Shown piece by piece: positions 1,999 to 61,447 of a DNA stretch of 64,000 nt. The stretch is from assembly GCA_964187785.1 (NCBI GenBank), contig OZ076409.1:7876001-7940000 (forward strand), read 5' to 3'. A model generated the notes under the pieces. It was given only the letters and a program-made list of their open reading frames with translations, was not told the DNA's origin and searched no databases. The DNA comes from Amphiscolops sp. MND2022. Lineage: Eukaryota. Made by a program: the position numbers and the translations under genes. Every line of letters begins with the position of its first letter. The first letter of the stretch is position 1.

Positions 1999-2535
1999 AC
2001 TGTAATGGTGAAAAAGAAAAACGGGGAGTTGCGCTAGCGCCTGCGAGTCTCTCCGTAACCTCCTCGATGAATTTGATGAGCTATTCATGAAACACAAAGC
2101 GGACATCGGTCGGTGCACTATCGCTAAGCACACCGTGGAGGTGGAACCAGGGGCTGTACCGCATCGCGAAGGTGCTCGCCGGATGTCCCCTGAGAAGGCC
2201 GAACGTGCCAATCAGGAGGTGCGGAACCTCTTAGCTCTGGGAATGATACAGCCCTCGCTGTCCCCTTGGGCGAGCGGCATTGGCAATGCCGCTCGCCCAA
2301 GGGGACAGCGAGGGCTGTATCATTCCCAGAGCTAAGAGGTTCCGCACCTCCTGATTGGCACGTTCGGCCTTCTCAGGGGACATCCGGCGAGCACCTTCGC
2401 GATGCGGTACAGCCCCTGGTTCCACCTCCACGGTGTGCTTAGCGATAGTGCACCGACCGATGTCCGCTTTGTGTTTCATGAATAGCTCATCAAATTCATC
2501 GAGGAGGTTACGGAGAGACTCGCAGGCGCTAGCGC
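1966..2535. repeat. Two adjacent perfect fold-back palindromes (34-bp arms centred on 2000; 252-bp arms centred on 2283) interrupting pol
   Basis: 1966-1999 is the reverse complement of 2001-2034, and 2031-2282 of 2284-2535. The ORF track shows the same peptide (MKHKADIGRCT...) on both strands. Confidence 0.95.
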
Positions 2536-4326: not shown

Positions 4327-6230
4327 GGGGGGGGGGGCGCCGGAGGTGGCAGGACGCCCTGCGGCATAACCATCTTGTTCGGCGGCAGTGGTGCGAAAGG
4401 ATGAGGTCTAGACCTCATGGCTAATCGGGGATCATAGGGTTGTTGAGGTTGGGTGGGTCTGGGACGATTTCGTTGCAGCTGACGTGTGGTAAATCGCAAG
4501 GACTCCACGGTAGGGGGTTCGGTAAGAAAAGTCTCCGAGGCGTACACTATGGCAAGTTCACGCCTCAACACTGGATCTCGCACACCTTCCATGAAGCGTT
4601 GCAAGATTTCATAGCGTTTGGTAATGATACTTTCTTGCGGGAATCCTTGGCTCCTGAGACCCTCTAAAGCGTCTAAGTACTGCATCCAGTCCTCTTTTTC
4701 TTGTTGGACGCGGCTTTGGAAGGTCTGCCGCACCTGCATACGATTTCCTCCCGCGCCAAATCGGCTAGATAGCAACTCGAACACCTTCTCGGGGGTGTCA
4801 CGTTCAGACTCAGCCTTGTTGATGATGTAGTTGCGAGCCTCACCCTCTAGGTGACCGATAATGCTCCAGGCCCGATCTTCGGCCGAGATTTTGGTTTGGA
4901 CTCTTTTCAAGTATCGCTGCATCACTAAAATCCAGCCATCAATAGACCCGTCCTTAGAGCCTCGATACACGCTGGGTTTGGTTTGAGCCAGGTCACGTCC
5001 CGCAAGCAACGGTGCTAGTTCTTTGGACATTGCTTTGGAAATGGCGGCAGTGAACCTCAATTGCTCGGGAGAAATGACTTCAGCCTCTCCTTCCTTGGGT
5101 GCCATTTCATCAGTACCGTCGTCACTGCCATGCGTAGCTTGCACTGAGAGGTTCGCCACGTCTTCTTTCTTGCGAGTGCTACTCGCACAAGGAGCGCCCG
5201 AGGGCATTCCATCCTCGGCTGTCCAGTCGGCGGTCAGATATAGGGAGTCCGTTCCAGAAGCCATGGTAGGGGCCGTCGCATACGCAGCTCCATCAGTCTG
5301 GGACCCCAGTGTGGCCTTAGTACAGGATAAATCAACTTCGGTGGAAGTATCTAGATAGATAGGTGACATTGGGTCCACACCTTGGTCCCGGGTGGCACTT
5401 CGAACTACGGAGGAGGTTATTTGACTCATCGACGAGGAGTCGTGGGGCCCTCTTACCTGCACCCGTGCAGGTTTACGCTCCACATCAGCCATGATGAGTA
5501 CGGGATCCTTGGCTCGGGTTTCAGGCGTCGTCGACTTGGAGGTGCTAGGCTTCAATGCACTCGCCAACTCGGGTTTTGTTGCCCGACCCGGGTGCGATGA
5601 TTCCGGAATCTTAATTGAATCCGCGACCGGCACACCTTCAGTGGCACCAGATTGTCGTGGGAGGGATCTTTCGCGCCTCATGATGTTGATAGCATTGAGC
5701 ACAGTGTGCATTTGGTTACTCAAATCATTGATCTGGGTTTCCACACGGAGTTCACGGGCCATCAAAAGGTCATTCATCTCACCCATTCTGTGGCCTAGTG
5801 CATCTACGCGAGCACTCTGCGTGTTCTGCGCGGTTCGCAGTTGATCACTGACCTGCAATCCTTCTCGCATCGTTGACTGCAATGTTCTCATATTTTCAGC
5901 GATGGCACGATGTTGGTCATTGCACCCAGCACGAGTGCTATCCAGTTCAGCTAAGGCACGTTGGGTCTCGGCTTGGGCTTCCAATATTGCGGCTTTATAC
6001 ACCGAAGATCGTTGGGACGATGCCACTGAACCTGCCACGCTCCTCGTACGAGGCACCTCAACTTGACGTTCACCTACATTTATCATGGGTGGTCGCACTT
6101 TCTTGTGTTTGCCATAGGCACAAACTCTAGTGTTACCTCGAGTGACTCCAGACCCTTGCGGTCTCGCACAACTCGCGTTCTCCGTGTAGGTAAGATCCTC
6201 GTCCACCGTGATCTGTAGGCGGGAGCTCAT
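4140..6230 (-). CDS. gag: Gag (coiled-coil plus retrotransposon capsid); the C-terminal knuckle lies in another frame after the G11 run at 4327-4337
   Basis: 696-aa ORF with PSVYRGSKDGSIDGWILVMQRYL...HLEGEARNYI...FQSRVQQEKEDW...FMEGVRDP, typical gypsy capsid motifs. Confidence 0.88.
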   Translation of the reverse strand: MSSRLQITVDEDLTYTENASCARPQGSGVTRGNTRVCAYGKHKKVRPPMINVGERQVEVPRTRSVAGSVASSQRSSVYKAAILEAQAETQRALAELDSTRAGCNDQHRAIAENMRTLQSTMREGLQVSDQLRTAQNTQSARVDALGHRMGEMNDLLMARELRVETQINDLSNQMHTVLNAINIMRRERSLPRQSGATEGVPVADSIKIPESSHPGRATKPELASALKPSTSKSTTPETRAKDPVLIMADVERKPARVQVRGPHDSSSMSQITSSVVRSATRDQGVDPMSPIYLDTSTEVDLSCTKATLGSQTDGAAYATAPTMASGTDSLYLTADWTAEDGMPSGAPCASSTRKKEDVANLSVQATHGSDDGTDEMAPKEGEAEVISPEQLRFTAAISKAMSKELAPLLAGRDLAQTKPSVYRGSKDGSIDGWILVMQRYLKRVQTKISAEDRAWSIIGHLEGEARNYIINKAESERDTPEKVFELLSSRFGAGGNRMQVRQTFQSRVQQEKEDWMQYLDALEGLRSQGFPQESIITKRYEILQRFMEGVRDPVLRRELAIVYASETFLTEPPTVESLRFTTRQLQRNRPRPTQPQQPYDPRLAMRSRPHPFAPLPPNKMVMPQGVLPPPAPPPPECPSSRCPSARPSAGRCLFSLWAKRTFCSRVPQSRPGPKTNDCLRTRGRKGDHGRHDRWYP

Positions 6231-6238
6231 CTTTTCTC

Positions 6239-6583
6239 CTAGGGGTGCGCGAGAGCACCCTTCCTCAGCTGCAAGTTCGTTGGTCGCGTTCGAGTTGGGC
6301 CACTCCTCTTCTGCTTCTTTGGCTCTTTCACGACAGGTTTCTTCGACCCATTGCTCGGTTCGACGAGAGCTCCCAGATGCAACGGAACCCTCAGAGGGGG
6401 GACCATGGCGGCCAATTCCTCCTTGCGTTGTTGCTCGATAGTGACTTCGTCAGACATTTCGTCTGAAAAATGCGAACCGTCCATTGTGGATCCTATGGTC
6501 ACCCATGACTGCGAACTCATGTCAAGCTTTTCCAGGCCTGGTAGGACCATTACACACGATGCCAATGACAGAGCAGGTGTCAA
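6239..6583 (-). CDS. Small ORF immediately upstream of gag, unknown function
   Basis: 114-aa ORF in the GC-rich part of the element, ending 8 nt before the gag ATG in a different frame. No recognisable domain. Confidence 0.25.
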   Translation of the reverse strand: MTPALSLASCVMVLPGLEKLDMSSQSWVTIGSTMDGSHFSDEMSDEVTIEQQRKEELAAMVPPLRVPLHLGALVEPSNGSKKPVVKEPKKQKRSGPTRTRPTNLQLRKGALAHP

Positions 6584-21146: not shown

Positions 21147-22334
21147 TAGGACCAGCGTGAAATCACGCGCGAACATGCTCAAAAATCACGCTTTTATTCA
21201 CGCTATTTTGAATCGAAAATAACGCTAAATTCACGGACAAAAAATTAGGCAAATGGCTGAATTCAATTCAATTTTCGGACCATGTTATCCCCCAGGTACA
21301 CCTTATTGGGAACCCCCCCCCCAAGCACAAAAGCACATTTTGGACAATTCAGGGAAAATTTTTTTTCCATATTATTGTCCAAAATAGCAGAAATTCACGT
21401 TTGAAACAAGCTAAAATTGTATAAAAAGGCCCCTATTTCAGCGCAAATTTTGTCCACTGTAAAATCTAATGAGCAACTTTTAACTGACAGTCAGAGAGAA
21501 GTTTGAGAAGTTATTTTTCCCAATTCTAGTTATTTTTCCCAATTCTGCCGGGATGGACGCCGAATAAGCAGTTATGCTTTTCTAAGTCGGCACCCTTTCG
21601 GATACTAATTGGTACTAAAATGGCACCATATTTGTGGTCAAGTAGTGGTAGACTTTAAGCTGTGGTTTCAAAGTGACTTGCTCAAGGTCACAAAGGCCTG
21701 ACTGCTCACCGTTGCTCTTTTTGTTTAGCTTTTCTCCGCCAAATGCGTTGCGTTATTTTTTGTCCTTGACCATACCGCTAAGCTATGGATTAAGGACTTG
21801 CTTAAGGACCAACAATGGTGAGTTGAGAGAGATTCGAACCTGATACAGTCCAGTACAGGCCGAATACTCTAACCTGACAGTCAATGTAATGATTAGTATT
21901 ATGTCGACATCAATTATTTTATTGGGCCAAAATTTCAACGCAAACGATGTCGACATAATGGTATTTGAACCTTCTGTCTTATTCCCCCGCCGCAGTTTTT
22001 GGGGGAAATAGATGACATGGTCCCAATCTTCCTGAACTTATATACAAAAACAGCACTGGTTTGATAATTTCGGGGCCCAACCCTTGGCGGTTTGGAGAGA
22101 CAGTATTTGAAAACTAGAATAGGTACTTAGAAACCATCATTCTCCGCCGATTTCTAGTTCCTTTTCATTGTTCTATGTTGTTCGATTTTCTGGAATAATC
22201 TAGAATACGTACTTCAAAACCATCATATTCCGCCGATTTCTAGTTCCGCTGTAGTATCACGCCAAGTGACGCAGCACTCGCCAAGTGGCTAGTAAATCAC
22301 GCAAATTCAGGCGCGTGAATTTATGCTGGCCCTA
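21147..22334. mobile_element. hAT-like MITE forming a putative intron (21146-22341)
   Basis: TIRs TAGGACCAGCGTGAAATCACGCGC / GCGCGTGAATTTATGCTGGCCCTA; degenerate 8-bp TSD TGTCAAGG (21139-21146) / TATCCAGG (22335-22342). Confidence 0.8.
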
Positions 22335-22341
22335 TATCCAG

Positions 22342-23011
22342 GTACGTTTGCGCAGCTGATAGCCAATCAACTCTCACAGCTTTAAATAAATTTTACAAGT
22401 GCATACAACTTGTGATTCGAGGAGTTAATCTGAACGATATTGAGGATATTGACAACTTCAACTGGGAACCGGAACACGTGCTAGTGATTGTCAATCCAAA
22501 AAGCGGAGACGGAAAAGGCGTCCATATTTTCAAAACTTTGGTTTCCAGAATGCTCGATCTTCTTTGCATGAAATACAAATACGTGGTTACGTCATATTCT
22601 GGCCACGCCCAAAGCTATGCATCTAGGGAGCAACTTACAATTTACAAAGGGGGCATTATATTGATTTCCGGCGATGGTTTATACAGTGAGTTTATAAACG
22701 GGGTTATGGAAAGAATGGACCGGAAGTCCGTGTGTAGAGTCCCGCTGTCAATCATCCCCGCTGGAACTAACAATACCCTGTCGGGTCCTTGCTGCAATAC
22801 AGGGGAGAACACACCAAAAAAGAGTTCGCACCTGTTAATTGCATGTTTGCCTTCCATAAAAGGTCAGGTCCAACACAAAGATCGGATTTTGCAAACCGGA
22901 ATCAACAAAATATCAAAGTGCCACTGCGCTTCATTTCGAGCGATGAACTCTTTGGAAAGTTTTGTAAGAGTAGCGCCGCAAAAGGCATCATATTTTTCTA
23001 GTTTTTTCTAA
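22342..23011 (+). CDS. Sphingosine-kinase-like gene, exon 2 (DAGK catalytic domain); apparent frameshifts after ~22780 near the gap
   Basis: Motifs VLVIVNPKSGDGKG, SGDGLYSEFING, PLSIIPAGTNN of the DAGK/SphK family. The SphK-like continuation (LLQYRGEH...NCMFA) is in another frame. Confidence 0.8.
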
Positions 23012-23028
23012 GGAAAATGACTATGAAC

Positions 23029-23228
23029 NNNNNNNNNNNNNNNNNNNNNNNNNNNNNNNNNNNNNNNNNNNNNNNNNNNNNNNNNNNNNNNNNNNNNNNN
23101 NNNNNNNNNNNNNNNNNNNNNNNNNNNNNNNNNNNNNNNNNNNNNNNNNNNNNNNNNNNNNNNNNNNNNNNNNNNNNNNNNNNNNNNNNNNNNNNNNNNN
23201 NNNNNNNNNNNNNNNNNNNNNNNNNNNN
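23029..23228. other. Assembly gap (200 N)
   Basis: Run of N. Confidence 1.
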
Positions 23229-32499: not shown

Positions 32500-35400
32500 A
32501 GAATATACTAATAAAAAGAAACATAAATTGTCCATTTCTGACCAAATTCTGCAAGTTTTTACCACAATTTGCACGCTGCTTTGTCAAAATATCTGCTAAT
32601 TGCAAATAAGATGGGATCCATTTCATAATCAGGGGGTCGTTCTGATCACTCGTAAGCTGCTTTAGGGAGCCGATATCAACTCTCAACCGTTTTTCTTGTA
32701 CAGTTTTCGTTGATTTGACGGATTCTATCAAACTTTTATTGTCTACAAGGGCGGTCTCAGGAATTTGTGAGCCAGTCAGCTCTTTCAGAATCTTCTCGAG
32801 AATAAATACTCTATCGATACCATCCAGACAAGCCATTGTTTCCGCCGCTAGAGTGCTTTTGACGATTTGTTTGAGTTTGTGAGACTGCCAGGTCACAATA
32901 GCGCCACGATCACCCATTTCCGGGTTCCCAATCACAACTAAATGGCCACCTTGTGTACCACCGTCTTCCAGATTTCCCATGAGGCATCCGAAAAGGAATA
33001 AAGCCGCCACTTGTCGACTGCTCCAAGGTCGGGGAAGAAAATACATGGCTTTGGGCCAAATTTGACAGTTCTCACTAGCTTGGTAAGGACTACAAGATCT
33101 CCAAATGTACTTTTCGGAATTTTACTGACGAAGGAAGTTCTAGCGAAAGCAACTTCTGGAATTGCCTGGACAGCCAACCACTGTAGCTGTCCCAGAACTT
33201 TTCTCATGGCGTTTCTTCTTTTCAGTCGTTTCTAGAACTTTCTATTTCAGTCGTGGGATCAGTTTTCTTACGATCTCCTGTCGATTGGATTCCCACTAAA
33301 TCTATTTTCTCGAGATATCCCTCCAATCTAACGTTGATTCCAGTACTAGTGCGTTCAATATCCATGCCCAAGTAAATGTAAGGTAACGTTATCTTGGTTC
33401 CAATGGCAAAAATCATTTAGGGGGTTAACCACATTCTTGTAAAACTCAGGACAACCAGCTGTCCAAAAATCATCAACATAAACACATATCAGTCCTAACA
33501 AGTCAGAACCTTTCTTCAAATAAAACAATGACGAGTCCAAAGGAGAAACTGTGCAATTCAACGCAACTAATTCTTGTCGTACTCGATCATACCAGTGTCT
33601 GGAAGCATCTAATAATCCATAAACGCTCTTTTTGAGTTGCCAAAGACCAGTTTCTTCACTTTCAGGAGGAGGTACAACAAAAACTTGTCGTTCCAGTGGC
33701 TGTACTTGGACGAAAGCTGTTTTTACGTCCAAAACTTCCGAGTTCCAGCTTTTTCTGGAAGCTAAAAGGGTCATCATTAGCCTGAAAGTATCTTTTCCAT
33801 AGGTGGGCGAGTCTGTTATCAAACTTTCCGGACTCTCTTGAAATCCTTTCGTCACTAATCGAGCTTTCAATTTTCCGTCGGACTTTCGCGTAAGAATCCA
33901 TCGTGTCGCAATTGTCGTCTGACCACGATCAGGGACTCTTTCATAGACATGACTTGAGTCCAACTTTTGAGCTCACCCTCTTTTGCCTTGGCAAACTCGT
34001 CTTCATCGATCTCATTTGTTACGTAAGCTGTGTCTTGCTGTTTTTCTCCGATTAGTGACCAGGATTCTACATCCTTTTCAAAACCTACAGGTCCAGTTTT
34101 GCCTTTCATGTGCTCAGGACTGTTATATTGAAATATTTACCAATTTTTGTTCTTTCCGGTACTTTTTCCTGCTTTTCCTATTACCGGAAAATTCACTTCC
34201 TGAAGAACATTCATATTTCGTTTTAAAGCGTATATCTGCATTTCTTCCAGGAATCTGAGAAGTGTCAACGAGTGGTTTGTCACCATGTAAAGCACAATGT
34301 TCAGTGAAAATTACCGATGCTGCATCAGGCTCGAGTGATTCAAGCGTCAGCGATGACAGTTCTGACGAAAGTTCGTTTTTAGCCAATTCAGACTCAATGT
34401 TCGTCGAACCTGCAGGACAGTTCGGAGTAGCTACAGGCTCCGTCTGCTGTTGGTCGATAGTCTCAGAAACACGGTATTCATCACTTCCGACCAACCGCAA
34501 TCTGTTTTTATGCGTTTTTACGACATTCCCTCCATTTCTCAAAATTGCAACAACGCCATCCATTCCAATAATTGTTTCCGGTCCATGCTATTCATCAGAT
34601 TCCGCTCTTTTTAAGAAAATTCGATCTCCAGTGACAAAAGTGTTTCATTCATTCTGAGCTTTGCTTTCAGGGCTTTTTTGATACGGCCATCGTTCTTCAT
34701 GCTAGTATACTCTTCCCGGGATCGTTTGAGCACCAACAGATGCTGCCTGAACTCCTCGCTAGTTGTCAACTTTTCTAAACCTGGCGGACCGAGTTCCATG
34801 ACGTTTGGTAATTGCGGATTCTGTCCAAAAACTATCTGCTGGGGAGAAAAACCATCCTTATTACTCAAACATTTTTTTGCGAAACAGCAATAATGAACCA
34901 GAGTTCGCTCAGGGAGTTTGAGATTATTGTCGTTTTGCAATTTTTCGAACAATGACCTGAGAACAGCATTGTGACCCTTGCAAACACCGTTTGACCACGG
35001 GCTTTCAGCAGCTGTTGTCTTTATGAAAATGCCATAATTTTCCGCCAAGGATCGAAAGCCACTATTGTAAAATTCTCGGCCATTGTCGGTCAATGTAGAA
35101 CCTGGCACACCAGATATGCTTATCCACTCTGTCGGAAACGCATGAATTATAGTTTCGCTTGTCATATACAATTCGCGCACTGCTGAACCTTGAATAAACA
35201 TCAATAAAATGGCAATAATACACGTTTTTTCTGATATAATGGAGGTCGATGGCGACAGTTTCGTTGAACTTGGAAGCCAATGGTAACGATACCGCTGGTT
35301 TCGCCCTGGGTCGATTGTGTTTGAGGCAAATATTGCAGTTTTCAAGGACGTTTTGAACGATAGTTCTGTGCACTTTGAAATTCGACGATTTTATGAGTCT

Positions 35401-36728
35401 CAGAAGGCGATCTTGTCCACAATGACCAAATTGGCGATGAAGTTTCATGACGTCTCGTTCAGTCAATTGTTTGTCGTGGGAGAAAAACGAGAAAGAACTG
35501 AAAACAATCTCTTTCATCTTCATAGCTAAATGACCAGTGGAGAGTTGAAATAATCTGATACTATGGCCCAAAATTTCCATTTTTTCAATATCCAGATCAA
35601 TCTTGGCGCCCATTTTTTTCAGTGATTTGGCACTTATGAGCAAGGGCAACTCCGTGTTGATGACCTCAGTGAGAATAAAGCACTTCAGATTGCCTATTTA
35701 CAAAGGTATTTGTAAGTTCCCAAACTCCTGAACGATTTTCCACCACCAAAAAGATTGGAGACATTTTTCGGCAATTCATATTCAAGTGATTCGCCCAATT
35801 CGGCAGAGAACTGATTGACCCAATCTTTTCCTGCCACTGATCTTGCACACCCAGTGTCAATTATTCCCAGTGCTCGACATTCTTCAAGCATGGACTCTGA
35901 TACGGTGGCAAAGGTCAAAAAGACTTTTTCTTCGTCACTTCTCTGTTGTTGCAAATCAGGACAATCTTTCCTCCAGTGAAACCGGGAGCCACAATTAGCG
36001 CTAGTAGACACTTGTCCGGATGCGTTCACTGGGTTTGTACCGTTCTGACGGATCTGTGAACTGCCAAAATTCCTTTTAACATTGAATCTTCCACGTCCTC
36101 AACCGCAATTAGTCCAGTAGATCGGGCTGTCTTCATTTCCTTCGTCCATGGGTGTTACAAAAGTTGGTTCGGGGTTTATCGAAGGTACGTCTCCTGTATC
36201 ACATTTTACGCAGCTCGTGAAAATTCTACGTAAAGACGGTCTCATGGCATCAAAGTTGAGATCAGGTGTGGCAGACAAAACCAAATGTCAATCCTTTATA
36301 TCGAGACCGGCACAATGAAGCAGTTTGCAAGCAAGAACTTCTGATGGGACATCAATTTTGAAGTTTTTTTAATTCTGCGTAGAGTCTTTCGAAGTCTTGT
36401 TTGTATTCGGTCATATTTCTATCAAGTCTTGCTACTGTTTCGAAATTGACAAAGGCCTCAAATGTCGATCGGTCTCCTCACGACCGAATTTAGATTTGAG
36501 CTTGACCAATAACTTTGTCAAGCCGTCCTCCGCATTCAGTTCTACACTGCTGAACTCAAGAGCTGCTTCTCGCTTCCTACCAGTAAGAGACAAGGCAACC
36601 GCAGGGCCTTGCTTTGCCTTGGCAAGATCTGTCACTGCCACCCATAGCTGTATTTCTGCATTCCAGCGCTCGAAAGGCACTTCATCATTCCATAGTGGTG
36701 GGGTTATTGAAAACTTGGTAGAACTCAT
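32500..36728 (-). pseudogene. Copia gag-pol, broken by many frameshifts and stops
   Basis: PPLWNDEVPFERW (gag), CGSRFHWRKDCP, IIDTGCARSVAG (PR), LHRQFGH...C..C and TDNGREF...SPWSNG (IN), KLKARLV...YVDDF (RT), QLADILTK (RH) spread over many short ORFs. Confidence 0.9.
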
Positions 36729-51879: not shown

Positions 51880-53822
51880 CTGTAAACACCAATAATGATT
51901 CATCCAAAATATTATACAGTCCGTGTAATACAATCGACTGCTGTCCTAATCCAGAACCTTTCTGAGACAATTCAGGTTTCGAGTATGCGGGCACATACGC
52001 TTCAATTCCCCCAAAAAAAACTGGTATCCAATTTCAAATGTCTCATAACTGAATTAGTATGGAAAATGCTTAGAATTTATTGGTTTTTCAAGTCAATTTA
52101 AGCAATGTCTGGTTGTCGAAAACTTGTTTGTAGATGCATTTTTTTCTCTGAAAGAACGAATTGCAGCCAGATTTTTGACCTTTTTCCATTCGACTTTTGG
52201 TATTAATGGCTCAATGTTGTACACGCAAACTATCACATTTCTGTTAGCTATAGAATATTTCTCTGATAAAAGCGACCCAGTTATAATTGTGGGATTAGAG
52301 CAGGAAATGATTTTTCTCAAGTCTATGAAAAACTTATATTATCTCTGTAGGATTTTTGACTTTTCGCTCATGATTTGGTGTTTATTAAATTTTAGTTCAT
52401 CAGCAAGGTAGATTTTACGGGGTGATATCGTATAAAAGTAAAGATTACACTAAGTACTTCAAGTACCTCGCACTATTATTTAATGTCAATAATATCGTCT
52501 CTAGTTCCGCGGACAACCAAAATAACCATTCTTAGCTGCTATGAAGCGACCGCGCAACGTATTAATGCAGTGAGACGGCCGCCACCACCTAAACCTATGT
52601 AAGAAAATTCTATTCGGAACGAAACTTTAACATTGAATTTCTCAATACCTATTGCGAATATAAGAAAAATTAAACCACCAAAATGCTCCTTTTCGACCTG
52701 ACTACGTGTTGAGTAAACATTTAAGAACTTTTCAGAAACGAATTTCCACAGAAAAAGCATTAGAAGTCATAAAATACTGTGAATAGAAATTTAGTCAAAT
52801 TACTATGTTAATACATGTGTTTGAGGGTAAGCGAGAGTGAAAACTCCGCCGTGTGCGTGAACAGCATAGAATGCAACTCACCCAAGCGTGTCAGAAAGCG
52901 AAAGGAATGAAAATTAGAACGCGCTGTGAGTGGCTGTACGCGTAGCTAATAAGAAAACGGCCGCCGCACACTTTGAATTAATCCCCCCTCTTAATAGAAA
53001 TAAAAAATCAAAACCCGATTTCTCGAAGATGAAAAAAGATAGCAACAAACGGTTTTCAGCATTCACAAGCCCATCTAAAGGAGAGCTTAAGTTGAGAATA
53101 TGAGCGTTGTGCGACCCCGGGAACCTATCGGGGGGAAGCTTTGAAAATAAGTGCATTTAAAATTTTGACGATTTTCCAAAATTGAGTTTCGTTTAAAAAT
53201 TTCGTGTGATCGCTACAGTTGTCAGAAAATGTTCGGATATGGCCTAAATTAAAGATAAATGGATGCCTTAACTTGTGTTAATTGGAAAATAAATAATATT
53301 CAGTAGTTTTTGAGAACTGAGCCAGCAAACGTTAAAAACAGCCCTAAAATGGCCTAAAAAACCGTTTTTCGCATGTTATCGCTTAGTACTCAACGTGTAA
53401 GCGCACAATAGCCGCCCCCTTCACAGCGTACTTGAGAATTGAAGTGGAGGAGTGAATAGAATAATAAATAGAGTGCTGCGGTGCGCTAGCGAAGAACCCC
53501 AAAGAATTTAAAGTTGTGATTTCTCTCTGCCGATAGGGATGTCGACCTACCAAAATGCTAACCCCCCCCCGCCGCACGTTTTGGGCGATATCGAACTGAA
53601 ACTTTCAGGGTAGACGCACAAGACCCAGGCGCACAGCGTTTAGCAGAAGCGTTTTTCCGAAAAAGGACCTGGTTTTGATATATTGGCCTCCAAAGTTGAA
53701 AGTCCAGACATGAAAATCGGGAAAATGACTATTTTCAGAAAAAGTACTATCAAATTTTGTTGAGAAAAGATAGAGACCTCATCTAAAGTGCAAAATACTC
53801 CTAATGACTTGGGCTAACGTTG

Positions 53823-53829
53823 TATATAA
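53823..53829 (+). promoter_or_regulatory. Candidate LTR TATA box
   Basis: TATATAA followed by GCCCCC; position inference only. Confidence 0.35.
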
Positions 53830-54582
53830 GCCCCCAGCCTGTATCTTTCAAATTGACTGAGTACTAGCACTCCAAAGTTGAGATTTGCGTGAAAACCGAT
53901 GGGTGATTTTTGACTACCAAATTTAAAGGCGTTTTTCACTATGAAGGAGTTGAAATAGAAAGAAAACTATGGAGTAAATTTTTGTAGCCCACGATTTGTA
54001 CTTTCAAATGGTGTACTTGGTTTTTGCCCCCCGTGATCGGAACACCTTGTTTTTGCCCTTAGAATTTGTAACACGAAAATCGACTTTTTTAGATATGAAT
54101 TAAAATCGCCTTTTAGGTCATTGTAAATTGTAGAAAATTGTTTCCTTCAGCCATTTTTAGCTGAAGAGAGTTGTCAGGAACCGCGTGAGAAAAAGAGACC
54201 TGGCAAAAAGTGCAAATGTCAATCAGTAAGCCGAAGTTCAAGTCGTGCTTACAAAAGTGGGAAACACTGAGTCAGTAGCACCACCCCTTAAATTCTATTG
54301 AAAACGAAGTAAAACCATCAGTCATGATTGACAAGGAGGTGGAACTAGGACCGACTCGTGATGAGAAATGTACTTTTGACGAATCTTCAGTCCCGAAGTA
54401 AGGAAAACTGATTTGCTCAACACTTAGTCAGGCCCCCAAAAAGGAAAGATGACAAATTACGGATACGTAAATGACTAAAGTGCCGAAGAAGTAACTTTGG
54501 CCGAAGTGTGTGTCAATTCAGAGACACACACCGTGAGTTACAACCTAGAGAACAGTTTGACTTATTGTTGTGTCGGCGATTT

Positions 54583-54972
54583 TTATCTGCAGCTACAAGT
54601 GAGGTGGAACTCCAAGACCTTGTGTTGAGATAACTTCGGAACAGGATTTTGCCGTAAGTGAGGTGGAACTCCAAGACCTTCTTCAAAATCCTTAGCTTCA
54701 ATCGTGAGTGAGGTGGAACGCCAAGACCTTCGTTGAAGCGTTCCAATCGTGCGTGAGGTGAGACTCCAAGACCGTCGTTGGAACAAACTGTTGCAATCGC
54801 GAGTGAGGTGACTCCAAGACCTCCGTTGTGGCACCCGTTCTCGAACCCTGTTCAATCGTGCGTGAGGTGAGAATCCAAGACCGTCGTTGAACATTCTTGT
54901 ACTCTTAATCGTGCGTGAGGTGTTGGACTCCAAGACCGTCGTTAGGATACAATTGCTTTCACTCCAAGACCG
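54583..54972 (+). ncRNA. Array of seven structured RNA hairpins plus a partial eighth motif, with a conserved apex, in the 5' LTR
   Basis: Core GTGAGGT(G/R)nACTCCAAGACC at 54599, 54658, 54708, 54753, 54803, 54862 and 54915, each closed by a different complementary stem. Confidence 0.75.
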
Positions 54973-55396
54973 ATAGAGATTTGCGGCGAGTTGCTTTATT
55001 CGATATATTACTGATATCACTCCCTATCCTCACGGATAACCAAAATCAACACCTTGCTAGAACCCTGCTTATTAATTGTCTGTGTTATATGCCTTCTAGT
55101 ATTAACCGTAATATTCACCGTATTTATCGATGTTACCTCATAGTACATTCTATTATTCGTGGTTGTGAAATTGTGTTTGTGTCTATTAATTGTCTTATTT
55201 TATTATTTTGTATTAATTGATGTTCAAACTGCTCTTTTCATTCGCGAAAAGACCCCCTCGTATTTTTAACAGCCTAAGAGTAGCGAGACAAACCCCTGAA
55301 AGAGGGAAAAATAGCAAAGTTGTAAAGATCGTGATTTCCTTGTCACACTTACCCCCACCGCCTTCGATTAAGTTGATTCGTCTCTTCTTCGGAGTT

Positions 55397-55402
55397 AATA
55401 AA
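55397..55402 (+). terminator. Candidate polyadenylation signal in LTR
   Basis: AATAAA ~120 nt before the LTR end (also at 60543 in the 3' LTR). Confidence 0.4.
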
Positions 55403-55523
55403 AATTTATGTAGATACTCAGCCAGTCCTTGTCTCGTGCATGGTACCTACGGGTTTAATTGAGTTGTAGTGGAGCTATTCTCAACAAATAGTTAAAGCTA
55501 CTGGAAAACTAAAAATCTTACAT

Positions 55524-55542
55524 TGGCGCTCCTGGGTGGGCT
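55524..55542 (+). promoter_or_regulatory. Primer-binding site (tRNA-Asn-like)
   Basis: TGGCGCTCCTGGGTGGGCT, 1 nt after the LTR; its complement AGCCCACCCAGGAGCG-CCA resembles the animal tRNA-Asn 3' end. Confidence 0.8.
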
Positions 55543-55634
55543 TTCTTTGCGTCTTTGTTATTTCCTCTTTCTTTGCTTACTTCTTTCCCATAGCTTCCCT
55601 TCACCCCTTGTGAGTTGCTGAACTCTTCTTGACG

Positions 55635-56897
55635 ATGTCTGGAGACGACGACAACGATCAGCAGATTTCCCCCGCCACCCAAGAAGATCCCAACGGCACC
55701 CACACTCCCGTCACAGGTGGTAGTAAACCACTCCTCAGTAAGTCCACTAAATTTTCCTTCGTAGGATTGGCCGACACGGAAAAGGAGTGTAAACGAGATG
55801 CTTATCGGCGATTGAAAGAAATGGAAAAAGAAGTTAAAAGATTCAAAATTGAAGCAGACCTAGATTCTGACGACTCCATGGTTCTTGAAAATGAATCCAA
55901 AAGAAGACAAAAACCTTTATATGAAAAATCACCAATAAAACCTGAAAAATTCCCTAGTAAGGACTATAACCGCTGGGAAAATTGGATAAAACACTTCAAG
56001 GCAGTTGCTAAAGCCAATGGATGGAATGATGGTCAAAAAATTGCAGCAATGCCTACTTGTTTAACATCATGGGCCATTGAAGAATTCGAAACTATCCCCC
56101 GAAGGTATATCGAAAAAGAACCAGGTTGTTATTCGCCGCGGTTTGACGAACTTCTTGAGGTTCTTAAACCCAAAATGCAACAGTATCGCAGTCAGCGAGC
56201 CACGCGGGCCGAATTTAAAGCCGTTAAACAATGGGAAAATGAGAACCTAAGAGAATTCTCGAGAAGAGTACGTCACCTCGCCGATATAGCCTTTCCTGAG
56301 AAACCCCTCCGGGAAAGAGAACGCGACATGAGAGATCAATTTATCGAAGGACTTTTTGATTCGCGGGTGCAAATCAATTTGTATGAAGACGAGCGTGACC
56401 GTGACTTCGGTGAAACTTTGCAACGTGCACAGGAACTCGAAATAATCCACAAGACTCAAGAATCGAGAAAAGACCGGAAATTCGATAAACTCCGCTACTC
56501 ACAAAATGATCTCGAGTATTCCGATACAGTAAGAGCTGGCTATTCAAACAATAACCAAATTGAAGAAAAATTTGCAGCTATAGAAACATCGTTAATCAAT
56601 GTGGCAAGTCGTTTTGATCGTTTCGAAAATTCAATTTGTCAACACATCTCCAAGCAAACTGAACAAATCTCGAAACTAGCCAACTCAACAACCAGCCAAA
56701 TTGAAACCCTCGTGCAAAGTATAAAAGACATGTCATCTGCGATGGTAGGAGCGGCGGGAAGTTCGCAACAGTCGGCTGGTGGGCAGTCTCAAAATGTAAA
56801 AATAACCCAACCCCCGCCTGAAGAAGCAGAATGCTTTCATTGCAAATCATATGGCCACTACGCTCGACAGTGCCCGAACAGAACCAAGTCAAAATAA
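55635..56897 (+). CDS. gag: Gag protein (420 aa): capsid, coiled coil, C-terminal CCHC knuckle
   Basis: KPEKFPSKDYNRWENWIKHFKAVAKANGW...QWENENLREFSRRV...DQFIEGL and CFHCKSYGHYARQCP; uninterrupted ORF. Confidence 0.93.
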   Translation: MSGDDDNDQQISPATQEDPNGTHTPVTGGSKPLLSKSTKFSFVGLADTEKECKRDAYRRLKEMEKEVKRFKIEADLDSDDSMVLENESKRRQKPLYEKSPIKPEKFPSKDYNRWENWIKHFKAVAKANGWNDGQKIAAMPTCLTSWAIEEFETIPRRYIEKEPGCYSPRFDELLEVLKPKMQQYRSQRATRAEFKAVKQWENENLREFSRRVRHLADIAFPEKPLRERERDMRDQFIEGLFDSRVQINLYEDERDRDFGETLQRAQELEIIHKTQESRKDRKFDKLRYSQNDLEYSDTVRAGYSNNNQIEEKFAAIETSLINVASRFDRFENSICQHISKQTEQISKLANSTTSQIETLVQSIKDMSSAMVGAAGSSQQSAGGQSQNVKITQPPPEEAECFHCKSYGHYARQCPNRTKSK

Positions 56898-57476
56898 CAA
56901 CAATTCGTGAATCAGGACAGCAGCGGAGCCGTAGATGATCTTCAATAGTGGCCAAAAGACGACATGATGACCATAAGCTGAAACACGGGAACCCGATGTG
57001 TGAAAAAAGCCTTCCACCGCTAGTACAGTACCCCATACGTGAGATGAAATTTTTCACATTAATAACTTGTATCCAAATCAAACAAATTTACCCCCCCTGT
57101 GTTTTTTTTGCCCCAATGAAAAGCTCGAAAACTATATTTTCTCCTCGCTTGAAAAAAAAATGAAAATAGGAGTAAAGTAATATAGAGTAACTCAAGTGCT
57201 CAAAACATCCTCCAGTCAATTAAAAAATTTTTTTTTCTCGATGGAATTGGAGAGCTTAAGGTGTTATAGTAGGCTTATAATTAATTAAATGGATATTAAT
57301 AGAAAGTGAAGTGATTTAGTATTGTATTTCAAGCACTTGTTTACAAAATAAAAGAGATTAAGTTGATGAAACAAGGCTACATTACAACCTGACTGGACTA
57401 CAAATTAACGAATCAGAACGCCCCTACAATAGGAATAAAATTTAAATAAACCAACTACTCAGGAGAGTAGTAGTCC

Positions 57477-57489
57477 AAGTGGGGGGGAA
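57477..57489 (+). promoter_or_regulatory. Polypurine tract
   Basis: AAGTGGGGGGGAA directly before the 3' LTR TG. Confidence 0.85.
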
Positions 57490-60400
57490 TGTAGGATTTT
57501 TGACTTTTCGCTCATGATTTGGTGTTTATTAAATTTTAGTTCATCAGCAAGGTAGATTTTACGGGGTGATATCGTATAAAAGTAAAGATTACACTAAGTA
57601 CTTCAAGTACCTCGCACTATTATTTAATGTCAATAATATCGTCTCTAGTTCCGCGGACAACCAAAATAACCATTCTTAGCTGCTATGAAGCGACCGCGCA
57701 ACGTATTAATGCAGTGAGACGGCCGCCACCACCTAAACCTATGTAAGAAAATTCTATTCGGAACGAAACTTTAACATTGAATTTCTCAATACCTATTGCG
57801 AATATAAGAAAAATTAAACCACCAAAATGCTCCTTTTCGACCTGACTACGTGTTGAGTAAACATTTAAGAACTTTTCAGAAACGAATTTCCACAGAAAAA
57901 GCATTAGAAGTCATAAAATACTGTGAATAGAAATTTAGTCAAATTACTATGTTAATACATGTGTTTGAGGGTAAGCGAGAGTGAAAACTCCGCCGTGTGC
58001 GTGAACAGCATAGAATGCAACTCACCCAAGCGTGTCAGAAAGCGAAAGGAATGAAAATTAGAACGCGCTGTGAGTGGCTGTACGCGTAGCTAATAAGAAA
58101 ACGGCCGCCGCACACTTTGAATTAATCCCCCCTCTTAATAGAAATAAAAAATCAAAACCCGATTTCTCGAAGATGAAAAAAGATAGCAACAAACGGTTTT
58201 CAGCATTCACAAGCCCATCTAAAGGAGAGCTTAAGTTGAGAATATGAGCGTTGTGCGACCCCGGGAACCTATCGGGGGGAAGCTTTGAAAATAAGTGCAT
58301 TTAAAATTTTGACGATTTTCCAAAATTGAGTTTCGTTTAAAAATTTCGTGTGATCGCTACAGTTGTCAGAAAATGTTCGGATATGGCCTAAATTAAAGAT
58401 AAATGGATGCCTTAACTTGTGTTAATTGGAAAATAAATAATATTCAGTAGTTTTTGAGAACTGAGCCAGCAAACGTTAAAAACAGCCCTAAAATGGCCTA
58501 AAAAACCGTTTTTCGCATGTTATCGCTTAGTACTCAACGTGTAAGCGCACAATAGCCGCCCCCTTCACAGCGTACTTGAGAATTGAAGTGGAGGAGTGAA
58601 TAGAATAATAAATAGAGTGCTGCGGTGCGCTAGCGAAGAACCCCAAAGAATTTAAAGTTGTGATTTCTCTCTGCCGATAGGGATGTCGACCTACCAAAAT
58701 GCTAACCCCCCCCCCGCCGCACGTTTTGGGCGATATCGAACTGAAACTTTCAGGGTAGACGCACAAGACCCAGGCGCACAGCGTTTAGCAGAAGCGTTTT
58801 TCCGAAAAAGGACCTGGTTTTGATATATTGGCCTCCAAAGTTGAAAGTCCAGACATGAAAATCGGGAAAATGACTATTTTCAGAAAAAGTACTATCAAAT
58901 TTTGTTGAGAAAAGATAGAGACCTCATCTAAAGTGCAAAATACTCCTAATGACTTGGGCTAACGTTGTATATAAGCCCCCAGCCTGTATCTTTCAAATTG
59001 ACTGAGTACTAGCACTCCAAAGTTGAGATTTGCGTGAAAACCGATGGGTGATTTTTGACTACCAAACTTTAAAGGCGTTTTTCACTATGAAGGAGTTGAA
59101 ATAGAAAGAAAACCATGGAGTAAATTTTTGTAGCCCACGATTTGTACTTTCAAATGGTGTACTTGGTTTTTGCCCCCCGTGATCGAGACACCTTGTTTTT
59201 GCCCTTAGAATTTGTAACACGAAAATCGACTTTTTTAGATATGAATTAAAATCGCCTTTTAGGTCATTGTAAATTGTAGAAAATTGTTTCCTTCAGCCAT
59301 TTTTAGCTGAAGAGAGTTGTCAGGAACCGCGTGAGAAAAAGAGACCTGGCAAAAAGTGCAAATGTCAATCAGTAAGCCGAAGTTCAAGTCGTGCTTACAA
59401 AAGTGGGAAACACTGAGTCAGTAGCACCACCCCTTAAATTCTATTGAAAACGAAGTAAAACCATCAGTCATGATTGACAAGGAGGTGGAACTAGGACCGA
59501 CTCGTGATGAGAAATGTACTTTTGACGAATCTTCAGTCCCGAAGTAAGGAAAACTGATTTGCTCAACACTTAGTCAGGCCCCCAAAAAGGAAAGATGACA
59601 AATTACGGATACGTAAATGACTAAAGTGCCGAAGAAGTAACTTTGGCCGAAGTGTGTGTCAATTCAGAGACACACACCGTGAGTTACAACCTAGAGAACA
59701 GTTTGACTTATTGTTGTGTCGGCGATTTTTATCTGCAGCTACAAGTGAGGTGGAACTCCAAGACCTTGTGTTGAGATAACTTCGGAACAGGATTTTGCCG
59801 TAAGTGAGGTGGAACTCCAAGACCTTCTTCAAAATCCTTAGCTTCAATCGTGAGTGAGGTGGAACGCCAAGACCTTCGTTGAAGCGTTCCAATCGTGCGT
59901 GAGGTGAGACTCCAAGACCGTCGTTGGAACAAACTGTTGCAATCGCGAGTGAGGTGACTCCAAGACCTCCGTTGTGGCACCCGTTCTCGAACCCTGTTCA
60001 ATCGTGCGTGAGGTGAGAATCCAAGACCGTCGTTGAACATTCTTGTACTCTTAATCGTGCGTGAGGTGTTGGACTCCAAGACCGTCGTTAGGATACAATT
60101 GCTTTCACTCCAAGACCGATAGAGATTTGCGGCGAGTTGCTTTATTCGATATATTACTGATATCACTCCCTATCCTCACGGATAACCAAAATCAACACCT
60201 TGCTAGAACCCTGCTTATTAATTGTCTGTGTTATATGCCTTCTAGTATTAACCGTAATATTCACCGTATTTATCGATGTTACCTCATAGTACATTCTATT
60301 ATTCGTGGTTGTGAAATTGTGTTTGTGTCTATTAATTGTCTTATTTTATTATTTTGTATTAATTGATGTTCAAACTGCTCTTTTCATTCGCGAAAAGACC

Positions 60401-60668
60401 CCCTCGTATTTTTAACAGCCTAAGAGTAGCGAGACAAACCCCTGAAAGAGGGAAAAATAGCAAAGTTGTAAAGATCGTGATTTCCTTGTCACACTTACCC
60501 CCACCGCCTTCGATTAAGTTGATTCGTCTCTTCTTCGGAGTTAATAAAAATTTATGTAGATACTCAGCCAGTCCTTGTCTCGTGCATGGTACCTACGGGT
60601 TTAATTGAGTTGTAGTGGAGCTATTCTCAACAAATAGTTAAAGCTACTGGAAAACTAAAAATCTTACA
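57490..60668 (+). repeat. 3' LTR (3179 bp)
   Basis: Copy of 52346-55522; differences seen are two 1-nt indels and about three substituted bases. Confidence 0.97.
59729..60118 (+). ncRNA. Second copy of hairpin array in 3' LTR
   Basis: Same sequence as 54583-54972, offset +5146. Confidence 0.75.
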
Positions 60669-61447
60669 ATCTCTCTGCACACCAATTCTGGTGCGATTTA
60701 TGAAAAATGGGGTAATTTCTTTTTTTTTCGATTCTAATTCTTTCACGCGCACTCAAACAAGGAAGCTTAATCTCTTCAAAATCACTTCAACTTTTGAACC
60801 AATTGTTGCTGAAATTAACGTTTCTTCTAATGTTTGTCATTCAAAATTGACTCATTTTGTTATCCCCATTTGAATCGGTCGATCACTCGACTGTTCCAAG
60901 AATAAAATAGGCCAAATAAAAATTCTATCCGCGGTCAACGAGTTGATGAAAATGGAATAAAATTAAAACAATCGTTGACAGACAATGTTCGCCGCATGGG
61001 CGTCATGTAACATTTGCTGGAAACTGTATTCAAATGTTCGAATGATAATTTGAAAGGACATATTGTGTTGTATGGAAAATAAATTGGTTAACAGCCGTTG
61101 CGTTTCTCCTACTACTGCTGCTTGTAAAATTTAAAGTTATAGAATTATAGAGTGGAGAACCAGAACCGACCGGCGTTGTTGGTATCATTATTATCATCAT
61201 TATTGGTGCAACCAAAGCCAAGCCGTCGTTACAGGCTGCAGAAAAACTGCAGTGGCTCTGTAAAATTTACACTGCGACTACGGAAGTTGAAGTTGAAGAC
61301 AGAGAACAAGCGATCTTCTCACAGCTTAGAACGCCTCAGTGCAGAATTCGCACCATCGTTCGTTGGAAGTGTTAGCTGGTAGTTGTTAGTTGTTACATCA
61401 TACCAACGCTCTTACCGCTTTTCTCACTTCTCTTCCAAAAAATTCTC

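Follow-up and report, generated by a model that had tools for sequence, protein, structure and literature searches.

Anatomy of the element

The window, the whole 64,000-nucleotide stretch of DNA that was analysed, contains an LTR retrotransposon of 8,323 bp at positions 52346..60668, the 1,967-bp interior of which is without pol. All of its features lie on the + strand. The element is flanked by the 5-bp TSD ATCTC at 52341..52345 and by the same 5 nt at 60669..60673, adjoining the end of the 3′ LTR. The 5′ LTR (52346..55522; 3,177 bp, TGTAGG...CTTACA) and the 3′ LTR (57490..60668; 3,179 bp) align with 99.843% identity, three mismatches and two gaps, and together make up 6,356 of the 8,323 bp (76%). 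TG...CA LTRs, a TSD, a tRNA PBS and a PPT, the structural hallmarks of LTR retrotransposons, are all present. None of the eight ORFs tested in the LTR (≥70 aa) has a Pfam match and a scan of the LTR against Rfam gave no match at E≤1. A TATA-like box (TATTTTTAA, 55261..55269) and a putative polyadenylation signal AATAAA (55397..55402) were read from the sequence, and the candidate U3/R border (transcription start) and candidate R/U5 border would lie near 55290 and 55420, respectively. The PBS (55524..55541) is an exact 18-nt complement of the 3′ end of tRNA-Asn(GTT) plus CCA. The tRNA-Asn 3′-end pattern occurs 404 times across the host genome, and ARAGORN identified tRNA-Asn gtt at three of the four pattern loci that were fetched; given this exact match to tRNA loci in the host genome, the primer is taken to be the host's own tRNA-Asn(GTT).

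The gag ORF (55635..56897) encodes a 420-aa Gag with a CCHC knuckle (56832..56879) and is followed by a non-coding tail (56898..57476) and by the PPT (57477..57489), a purine-rich run before the 3′ LTR. No open frame was found in the 592 nt from 56898 to 57489, and a tblastn search of the tail for pol remnants with the Pol and IN of the helper (see below) gave a best E of 0.37. All of the items that a preliminary description had reported as seen, namely the TSD, near-identical LTRs, PBS, PPT, 420-aa CCHC Gag and absence of pol, were reproduced. The anatomy, the other copies and the helper are all taken from one assembly. The host genome contains seven Wnt gene matches, all over the Pfam cut-off, and the presence of Wnt genes identifies the host as a metazoan.

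The gag-only family and its helper

A 22-mer diagnostic of the pol-less end of Gag is found at 29 places in the 1.07-Gb genome (27 loci that were read and two more), distributed over 13 large contigs and a single small contig, and the 1,967-bp interior matches 26 other places over its full or nearly full length at 86–100%. Perfect, private 5-bp TSDs are present in 8 of the 11 copies checked (the window copy and 7 of 10 others), the remaining three being unreadable. The copies fall into five subfamilies that are up to ∼20% apart in the 5′ part and have the pol-less junction in common. Hence the genome holds what the preliminary description had anticipated, a gag-only family, whose ∼29 copies are alike in their pol-less structure and differ in their TSDs. 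The identity between the two LTRs, taken over the first 1,900 bp, is 99.74–99.90% in four of five copies, and the fifth gives 99.89% over an alignment of only 928 bp. The claim that the window element moved recently, and hence with Pol and IN supplied in trans, also stands, as its LTRs are 99.84% identical, it has its own TSD and it carries no pol.

An autonomous partner with the same LTR termini, tRNA-Asn PBS and PPT had been predicted and was found. This helper is a Ty3/gypsy family of ∼14–15 kb, with an RT marker at 186 places in the genome and the LTR-end/PBS junction (≤1 mismatch) at 254. The two full helper copies that were read have TGTAGG...CTTACA ends and a PBS and PPT identical to those of the gag-only element, and the 24 nt before the 3′ LTR (PPT) do not differ between any of the 12 elements read, of which five are gag-only and seven helper. 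The helper encodes a 464-aa Gag and, past a T_TTA_AAC heptamer, Pol in the −1 frame; the Pfam domains PR, RT, RNase H and IN are in the Ty3/gypsy order. The window Gag is 78% identical to the helper Gag, and it is on this identity and the LTRs held in common that the gag-only element is assigned to Ty3/gypsy. Helper LTRs measure 3.0–3.8 kb, so that giant LTRs are not a peculiarity of the gag-only element. The LTR–LTR identity of seven helper copies (first 1,900 bp) is 99.16–99.90% and the helper is equally young as the gag-only copies. One helper copy, on C8, matches positions 1–2214 of the gag-only LTR at 96.5–98%, and 40 scored matches to the first 400 bp of the LTR include 5 pairs ∼5.1 kb apart and 9 pairs 10.8–11.06 kb apart. 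The IN frame is broken at the macrodomain/IN junction in both fully read helper copies. A continuous PR/RT-RH-macro-IN arrangement is found in the natural public-set proteins P0105, P0111, P0112 and P0114, and an intact helper is therefore known only from the public protein set.

Comparison with the helper delimits a gag-only-specific 3′ module (56416..57489) that comprises the C-terminal part of Gag, the tail and the PPT. The gag part of this module is 57–79% identical to the helper. The tail is partly homologous to the helper 3′ untranslated region, matching the sequence between the helper IN stop and 3′ LTR at 57007-57168 (76%) and 57278-57508 (91%). The module is nearly uniform among the 27 gag-only copies: shared variants number 0.017 per site in 56415-56895, compared with 0.256 in the 5′ and middle parts of gag.

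Mosaic copies, the U3 array and Gag

Mosaics were detected by sliding identity and by runs of informative sites. By informative sites, the window copy contains a patch of helper (auto1) type at 55292..55919, which covers R-U5, the PBS and the leader and extends over ∼95 codons at the start of gag. From 55292 to 55680, 69 consecutive informative sites agree with helper copy L028, and agreement with L028 continues at most informative sites up to 55919. The patch is flanked by a gag-only backbone of B type, supported by 62 consecutive sites at 54956-55275 and by 127 of ∼136 sites at 55928-56799. One breakpoint (55275-55292) lies just 3′ of the TATA-like box, at the candidate U3/R border, and another (55510-55520) coincides with the U5/PBS border; these are the places that RT strand transfer predicts. 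Gag-only mosaics in general combine one homogeneous 3′ module with 5′ parts from at least three lineages, and in copy L027 an open, chimeric Gag has its first ∼250 aa from a third lineage (∼74% nucleotide identity to helpers). On sequence grounds, the mosaics point to co-packaging with helper RNA, and the free exchange of leader and 5′ gag with helpers implies shared particles and not separate ones.

The U3 tandem array (54590..54944, with a twin in the 3′ LTR at ∼59736-60090) consists of seven units of ∼37 nt with the core CCAAGACC, placed 45–61 nt apart. It is located 350–700 nt 5′ of the candidate transcription start, within a variable tandem-repeat spot at which the helpers have a different repeat in roughly 1 to 28 copies. 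An array of at least six motifs is present in 21 of 27 gag-only copies compared with none of the four helper copies read. In three of the 27 (L008, L012 and L025) it is replaced by the ∼30-bp repeat of the helper, and the array-less L008 has a perfect TSD of its own. Varying U3 repeats are the usual picture for promoter/enhancer repeats. Relative to shuffled sequence, the predicted folding gives a z-score of +0.56 when the array is taken whole and a range from −1.58 to +1.52 when the seven units are taken singly, and the LTR has a single inverted repeat besides the array. What had been termed a hairpin array is a plain U3 tandem repeat, with a folding signal absent against shuffles.

In the window Gag, Pfam zf-CCHC matches residues 400–415 (E 2e-4). 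For PF03732 (Retrotrans_gag) the protein itself falls short of E 0.01, but the family is matched by 11 of 36 aligned relatives (best 2.2e-7), and the Atlas neighbours of the window Gag are PNMA, Retrotrans_gag and Ty3_capsid clusters (0.91–0.94). In the public set, no other Gag C-terminus comes closer than 61% identity. The gag frame is open in 15 of the 27 gag-only copies. The other 12 carry 20 disabling lesions, each private to one copy, and hence there is no sign that a broken copy has been propagated. Single-nucleotide deletions account for 12 of the 20, and both of the two that were looked at closely sit in short base runs; some lesions may be assembly errors. Codons 261–420, which have no close helper counterpart in the host genome, show dN/dS of 0.18–0.20 at dS of 0.91–0.97 against the helper, length differences from the helper Gag are in frame and the CCHC motif is retained. 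Among the gag-only copies 24 of 82 variants in 3′ gag are synonymous, compared with 21% expected from random single changes, and the gag-only-specific variation in this region looks near-neutral. There is no clean evidence of selection on the gag-only Gag, because most of the subfamily divergence is in parts that may be helper-imported, and the open chimeric gags are weak evidence for it since homologous recombination alone preserves the frame. On balance, we lean slightly towards the element needing its own Gag.

Propagation and comparison with known elements

Very probably, the element derives from a Ty3/gypsy family with giant LTRs that resides in a metazoan genome, and is a non-autonomous form with gag as its only gene. 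We propose that an ancestral deletion of ∼5.8–6 kb, extending from just past the Gag zinc knuckle into the 3′ untranslated region, would have removed the frameshift site, protease, RT, RNase H, macrodomain and integrase. Transcription would be driven by the element's own U3, its own 420-aa Gag would be produced, tRNA-Asn would prime reverse transcription, and integration would be carried out by Pol and IN from autonomous relatives whose LTR termini, PBS and PPT are the same. Element RNA would at least sometimes be packaged alongside helper RNA, and strand transfer and copy-choice by RT would repeatedly bring new 5′ parts (R-U5, PBS, leader and 5′ gag) from several helper lineages to one persistent 3′ module consisting of the Gag C-terminus and knuckle, the tail, the PPT and most of U3. 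The proposal builds on the observed anatomy, the ∼29-copy family with private TSDs, the helper family, and the mosaics with their breakpoints, and it would involve trans-complementation, co-assembly of two Gags and co-packaging. A bolder version, rather unlikely and raised here tentatively, is a long-lived 'satellite' retroelement in which the 3′ module, with its own Gag needed in cis, is serially grafted onto the 5′ halves of active helpers. The persistent unit would be the private Gag C-terminus with its knuckle, the tail and the element's own U3, carried across at least three helper lineages. If so, it would resemble a capsid-encoding satellite virus of a retrotransposon and not a decaying deletion mutant.

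The preliminary description had proposed a two-part private system, in which a capsid of the element itself would recognise a private RNA array, structured and located in the LTR, and merely capture the Pol of a helper. We consider this quite improbable. The Gag C-terminus and its knuckle do form one homogeneous module together with the tail and the greater part of U3, in which the CCAAGACC array lies, the array is frequent in gag-only copies and absent from the helper copies read, and the nearest public-set Gag C-terminus is distant; however, the linkage of knuckle, tail and U3 is explained by the position of the deletion junction alone. The idea is unsupported since the array has no folding signal (nor an Rfam match) and the helper repeat, found at the same spot upstream of the candidate start, can take its place in copies with the same Gag end, and leader and 5′ gag are exchanged with helpers. 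A Gag that is a mere passenger, with a frame kept open by youth and by cis-acting RNA signals in gag while the helper supplies all proteins, is possible, if somewhat unlikely. It would suit the near-neutral appearance of the gag-only-specific variants, the youth of every copy and the trans mobility of non-coding plant elements, as given in the available part of PMC4350172, but not the lack of any lesion common to two copies, the dN/dS of ∼0.2 at dS ∼0.9, or the in-frame indels and retained CCHC.

It is exceedingly improbable that the window element was a full-length copy that underwent a one-off deletion after it had inserted, or that it is an artefact of assembly. A search of the assembly for a second, empty-site copy of the upstream flank found none, which would be compatible with either, but the identical junction at 29 places on 14 contigs, the private TSDs and the common junction of five divergent subfamilies argue against both. 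The 29 places likewise contradict the possibility, named in advance as refuting, that all other copies carry pol. A host-serving or anti-helper Gag, acting like a restriction factor or a domesticated capsid, is very improbable: a Pol-less extra Gag could conceivably disturb the Gag:Gag-Pol balance of the helper, but the family has multiple LTR-bounded copies, was mobile recently and is half decayed, with no single conserved locus seen. No sign was seen of domestication of the Arc/PNMA-like kind, the mark of which is a single LTR-less host locus conserved across species, the ∼29 copies being LTR-bounded and recently inserted.

TR-GAG elements of plants have LTRs, a PBS, a PPT and a TSD, with Gag as the sole open frame and trans mobilization presumed; in the available part of PMC4350172 they are <4 kb and described for plants only, the word 'animal' being absent from that text, and the autonomous partner of TR-GAG1 was not found. 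The window element is similar in that Gag is its sole ORF and protease, RT and IN are lacking, but differs in its length of 8,323 bp, its 3.2-kb LTRs and its metazoan host, and, unlike TR-GAG1, the gag-only family has an identified partner with which recombination is documented. It is not a TRIM or LARD, the interiors of which have no coding capacity, as its 420-aa gag is open. Judged by titles or abstract openings, the TR-GAG literature among the matches listed is plant-focused, and further literature searches for a description of an animal gag-only LTR element found none. With the gag-only family, plant TR-GAG elements have a well-documented counterpart in an animal. The case adds an animal family that, at ∼29 copies, is small enough for each copy to be read individually, a helper family that was identified, insertion sites that are private, and mapped breakpoints that suggest where R starts and that two RNAs share particles. 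These four additions make it testable whether a retrotransposon parasite needs its own capsid protein. Nothing is overturned, as non-autonomous derivatives and template switching were already established.

The gag-only family also resembles the barley pair BARE2/BARE1, in which, according to the available parts of the sources, a non-autonomous element is complemented by, and shares particles with, a close autonomous relative (PMC3735527), BARE2 receiving functional Gag from BARE-1 (PMC4350172). Unlike BARE2, the non-autonomous partner here retains Gag and is without Pol. In soybean, a plant, Du et al. (2010) reportedly described 'LTR swapping' between autonomous and non-autonomous partners, the latter not being defined by a retained gag. 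The present family is similar in that the LTR and other modules are exchanged between it and its helper. As in the animal pairs MaLR/MERVL and ETn/MusD, the gag-only family would be trans-mobilized by an autonomous family with similar LTRs. Template switching inside particles is described in the available part of PMC5131818. To our knowledge, an intact gag that is the sole gene is not the defining feature of MaLR or ETn. A further comparison is with an animal retroelement that is LTR-less. HeT-A, found with TART at Drosophila telomeres, encodes Gag only and relies on the RT of a partner; both are non-LTR elements that integrate by another mechanism and serve the host. The gag-only family is like HeT-A in being animal, Gag-only and partner-dependent, and unlike it in being bounded by LTRs.

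Structure and distribution of the pol-less element

The element at 52346–60668 is bounded by a 5′ LTR of 3,177 bp (52346–55522) and a 3′ LTR of 3,179 bp (57490–60668), each starting with TGTAGG and ending with CTTACA. The two LTRs are 99.843% identical by pairwise alignment (3 mismatches and 2 gaps), and ATCTC flanks the element on both outer sides as a 5-bp target-site duplication (TSD). An 18-nt primer-binding site (PBS) begins one base past the 5′ LTR and is perfectly complementary to the 3′ end of the host tRNA-Asn(GTT) with CCA added, and a purine-rich tract (PPT) directly adjoins the 3′ LTR. The single gene, gag (55635–56897), encodes a protein of 420 residues in which Pfam detects a single CCHC knuckle (E 2e-4). 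No open frame is present in the 592 nt between the gag stop and the 3′ LTR, where a tblastn search for a pol remnant with helper Pol and integrase gave at best E 0.37, and none of eight LTR ORFs matched Pfam. Every feature that the preliminary description had recorded by inspection, namely the TSD, near-identical LTRs, PBS, PPT, 420-residue CCHC Gag and pol-less tail, was reproduced. The remaining window DNA is rich in transposable elements; regions at 2231–6446 (−), 33355–33969 (−), 34611–35694 (−), 22319–23008 (+) and 23029–23228 include an ORF, not related to the element, that has a zinc knuckle and an aspartic protease, a fragment of a copia-type RT and fragments of integrase, as well as one host exon coding for a diacylglycerol-kinase catalytic domain and a 200-N gap.

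The 1.07-Gb assembly that contains the window (1,929 contigs) was searched for related copies. The host is an animal, since the assembly contains Wnt genes (seven matches, every one above the Pfam cut-off). The 20-nt 3′-end pattern of the tRNA-Asn type occurs 404 times genome-wide, and ARAGORN called tRNA-Asn gtt at three of four pattern loci, all four lying outside a very large tandem array of such 3′ ends (G000:C7, ∼47638000–47687000 and beyond) in which most of the 404 are found, spaced roughly 0.2–1.2 kb. The 1,967-bp interior of the element has 26 other full-length or nearly full-length matches with 86–100% identity and a further one, L027, that aligned only from interior position 402 on. 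A 22-mer spanning the pol-less end of Gag was found at 29 genomic places (≤1 mismatch), comprising the 27 loci read and two on contig C10, and its reversed control at none. Outer ends were read for ten other gag-only copies. Seven have perfect 5-bp TSDs, all different (GTGAC, ATAAT, AATTA, TTTGT, TTTAT, GCTGT and GATGG), and for the remaining copies L003, L004 and L012 the sequence slice did not reach a readable 3′ end. The window copy and seven others each have their own TSD, which implies at least eight insertions of one and the same pol-less unit, and hence a family, not an accident. A search of the assembly for an empty site with the upstream flank returned only the locus itself and 35–43-nt matches involving the initial ∼40 nt of the flank. 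The two C10 markers (G000:C10:57444460–57447448) lie 2.1 kb apart on the same strand, a spacing too small for a full LTR between them, and each adjoins gag sequence of the older type; the pair could reflect a partial copy, either tandem or nested.

In its mode of action the gag-only element resembles the plant TR-GAG elements (PMC4350172): it shares with them a coding capacity limited to gag, and differs from them in size (<4 kb for TR-GAG) and in the plant host for which they are described. It also differs from BARE2, which, according to PMC4350172, receives its Gag from BARE-1. No description of animal gag-only LTR elements was found in the literature searched, which leaves out most subscription journals and repeat databases. 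The element is a new and unusually well-resolved animal example of an established type of non-autonomous LTR retrotransposon.

The autonomous partner and its Pol

Thirteen other genome matches cover interior positions 1–1269 only, with 86–88% identity. Extension of the match on contig C5 yielded a full element (the helper) with ∼3.8-kb LTRs that have the same first and last bases as those of the window element, and with an identical PBS and PPT. It encodes a 464-residue Gag, a 1,007-residue frame in −1 with protease, RT and RNase H domains, and then a 603-residue frame with the zinc-binding, core and C-terminal domains of integrase (all by Pfam), and this domain order is that of Ty3/gypsy. The helper copies on C5 and C8 have overlapping gag and pol: the heptamer T_TTA_AAC lies in the gag frame 24 nt before the gag stop, and just past it Pol is open in the −1 frame. 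This heptamer is absent from the gag-only interior of the window element. In both fully read helpers (G000:C5:32073000–32087000 and G000:C8:34214608–34228871) the integrase frame is discontinuous with the RT–RNase H–macrodomain frame at their junction, across which the public proteins P0105, P0111, P0112 and P0114 are continuous, and the break may be a genuine lesion or an artefact of assembly.

The opening 400 bp of the window LTR, used as query, gave 828 candidates, of which 40 were scored. Among these 40 were five pairs 5,089–5,195 bp apart (gag-only), nine pairs at 10.8–11.06 kb, one 13.57-kb pair, one 5.41-kb pair and eight singles. A 10.8-kb pair on C8 belongs to a helper copy whose 3.0-kb LTR is 96.5–98% identical to positions 1–2214 of the window LTR. 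At G000:C1:36897352–36903161, LTR starts 5,410 bp apart accompany a normal LTR-end/PBS junction without the gag-only marker, and may be another kind of short derivative within this family. Genome-wide, a 22-mer from the helper RT occurs at 186 places (≤2 mismatches) and the LTR-end/PBS junction at 254 (≤1 mismatch).

On sequence comparison, the gag-only form corresponds to the helper minus ∼5.8–6 kb that starts just past the knuckle and reaches the 3′ untranslated region; the window tail still matches parts of that region (76% and 91%). Over the first 1,900 bp, LTR–LTR identity is 99.74–99.90% in four gag-only copies and 99.16–99.90% in seven helper copies, and a fifth gag-only copy gives 99.89% over a 928-bp alignment only. 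Both forms have been mobile in the same recent period. The proposal that Pol is supplied in trans by an autonomous partner sharing the LTR termini and PBS is thus supported, together with the family itself. The pair resembles a partnership in soybean that is said to operate by ‘LTR swapping’.

A further domain of ∼140 residues lies in the helper Pol, after RNase H and before integrase (L031:5650–6423 (−) in the C5 helper, and also in the C8 helper). It is homologous to human OARD1/C6orf130, an ADP-ribose hydrolase of the macrodomain class, and matched five chains among PDB sequences by phmmer (E 9e-20 to 3e-19) and Pfam Macro at E 0.11 only. Its LITK and PRIGC..D motifs line up with human OARD1 and presumably include the catalytic residues of that enzyme. 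Fourteen public proteins of Pol size share this region with 47–98% identity, and all of them have RT, RNase H or integrase domains. An Atlas search with the domain gave no usable match, and a literature search on macrodomains and LTR retrotransposons returned no paper on such a domain, judged by title. The macrodomain may be the more unusual feature of the family.

Mosaic structure of the gag-only copies

Sliding-window and module identities among the 27 gag-only copies differ along the interior. The 3′ module, which consists of the Gag C-terminus, tail and PPT, is 94–100% identical, and the 5′ parts joined to it are 68–100% identical. Shared variants per site number 0.286 in the leader, 0.256 in 5′ and middle gag, 0.017 in gag 56415–56895 and 0.086 in the tail. 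The window copy tracks L010, a gag-only copy of the 95% type, over 62 consecutive informative sites (54956–55275), then the helper L028 over 69 consecutive informative sites (55292–55680) and mostly to 55919, beyond which it returns to L010 (127 of ∼136 informative sites, up to 56799). L010 itself tracks the older gag-only copy L021 to 55510, helpers from 55520 to ∼56445, and then L021 again, and in this genome the closest relative of L021 mid-gag other than gag-only copies is only 84–87% identical. L027 has the PBS and 3′ module of the other gag-only copies joined to a leader and first ∼250 Gag residues from a third lineage (∼74% nucleotide identity to helpers); it has its own start codon, an open chimeric gag frame, a perfect TSD and LTRs that are 99.9% alike.

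The first breakpoint of the window copy (55275–55292) lies 6–31 nt downstream of TATTTTTAA (55261–55269), and AATAAA is present at 55397–55402; from these positions R would extend from ∼55290 to ∼55420. If so, the helper-type patch is exactly R-U5-PBS-leader-5′ gag, and the breakpoint of L010 sits at the putative U5/PBS border. In retroviruses such recombinants come from two different RNAs within one particle. The mosaic of the window copy would result if minus-strand strong-stop DNA copied from a helper RNA moved to the 3′ end of a gag-only RNA and a single copy-choice switch inside gag followed. As the breakpoints fit the rule of two RNAs per particle, we read the mosaics as evidence that gag-only RNA may be co-packaged with helper RNA. 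Template switching within particles is described in PMC5131818. Gene conversion between genomic copies is an alternative source of the mosaics.

Requirement for Gag and the U3 array

Window and helper Gag are 78% identical over the BLASTP alignment, with 92 of 97 residues identical at 1–97, 148 of 163 at 98–260, 53 of 70 at 261–330 and 59 of 90 at 331–420, the last with 44 gap columns. The 104 relatives of window Gag are all unnamed, and Pfam Retrotrans_gag is matched by 11 of 36 aligned relatives and not by window Gag itself. The nearest Atlas clusters are of the PNMA, Retrotrans_gag and Ty3_capsid types (0.91–0.94), and a profile from the Gag alignment matched among PDB sequences only zinc knuckles (E 0.006 and weaker) and the coiled coil of a spike S2′ chain (E 7.5e-4).

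Whether the gag-only element needs its own Gag was assessed from all 27 copies, and the evidence leans modestly towards such a need. The gag frame is open in 15 copies. Twenty disabling lesions are spread over the other 12, namely 12 one-base and 2 longer deletions, 5 stops and 1 lost start. Each occurs in one copy only, so the data show no case in which a broken copy gave rise to another. However, some of the one-base deletions may be assembly errors. Codons 261–420, which are without a close helper counterpart in this genome, give dN/dS of 0.18–0.20 at dS of 0.91–0.97 against the helper, differences in gag length are in frame, and the knuckle region is the best-conserved stretch of gag, with several 22-mers identical in 26 of 27 copies. 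Against this, variants among copies in 56415–56895 (24 synonymous and 58 non-synonymous) are 29% synonymous versus the 21% that random single changes would give, a near-neutral result of little power, and most of the divergence between gag-only subfamilies lies in parts that may come from helpers. Whole-gene dN/dS between subfamilies was dropped as a gauge of selection on the lineage of gag-only copies, since much of the divergence may, as the mosaics show, be imported.

The preliminary description had further suggested that a private capsid recognizes a private array of RNA hairpins in the LTR. The array comprises seven units of ∼37 nt spaced 45–61 nt (54590–54944) and would lie in U3, upstream of the candidate transcription start, which is the usual location of promoter or enhancer repeats. 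As RNA it folds no better than shuffled sequence (z +0.56; 73 of 100 shuffles did equally well or better; single units, z −1.58 to +1.52), and Rfam gave no match at E≤1 over 52346–57600. In the part of the LTR read, the core motif occurs at least six times in 21 of the 27 gag-only copies, four times in two and zero or one time in four, and once in each of the four helper copies read. Helpers carry a different tandem repeat of ∼30 bp at this spot, which replaces the array in the gag-only copies L008 (∼10 repeats), L012 (∼28) and L025 (∼7). The array is therefore common in the gag-only form and not needed by it, L008 having an open gag and its own TSD, and the suggested private capsid and hairpin system is not supported. 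The ∼30-bp repeat is present in ∼1 copy in the C8 helper and 4 in the C5 helper, and its varying number helps to account for LTR lengths from 3.0 to 3.8 kb.
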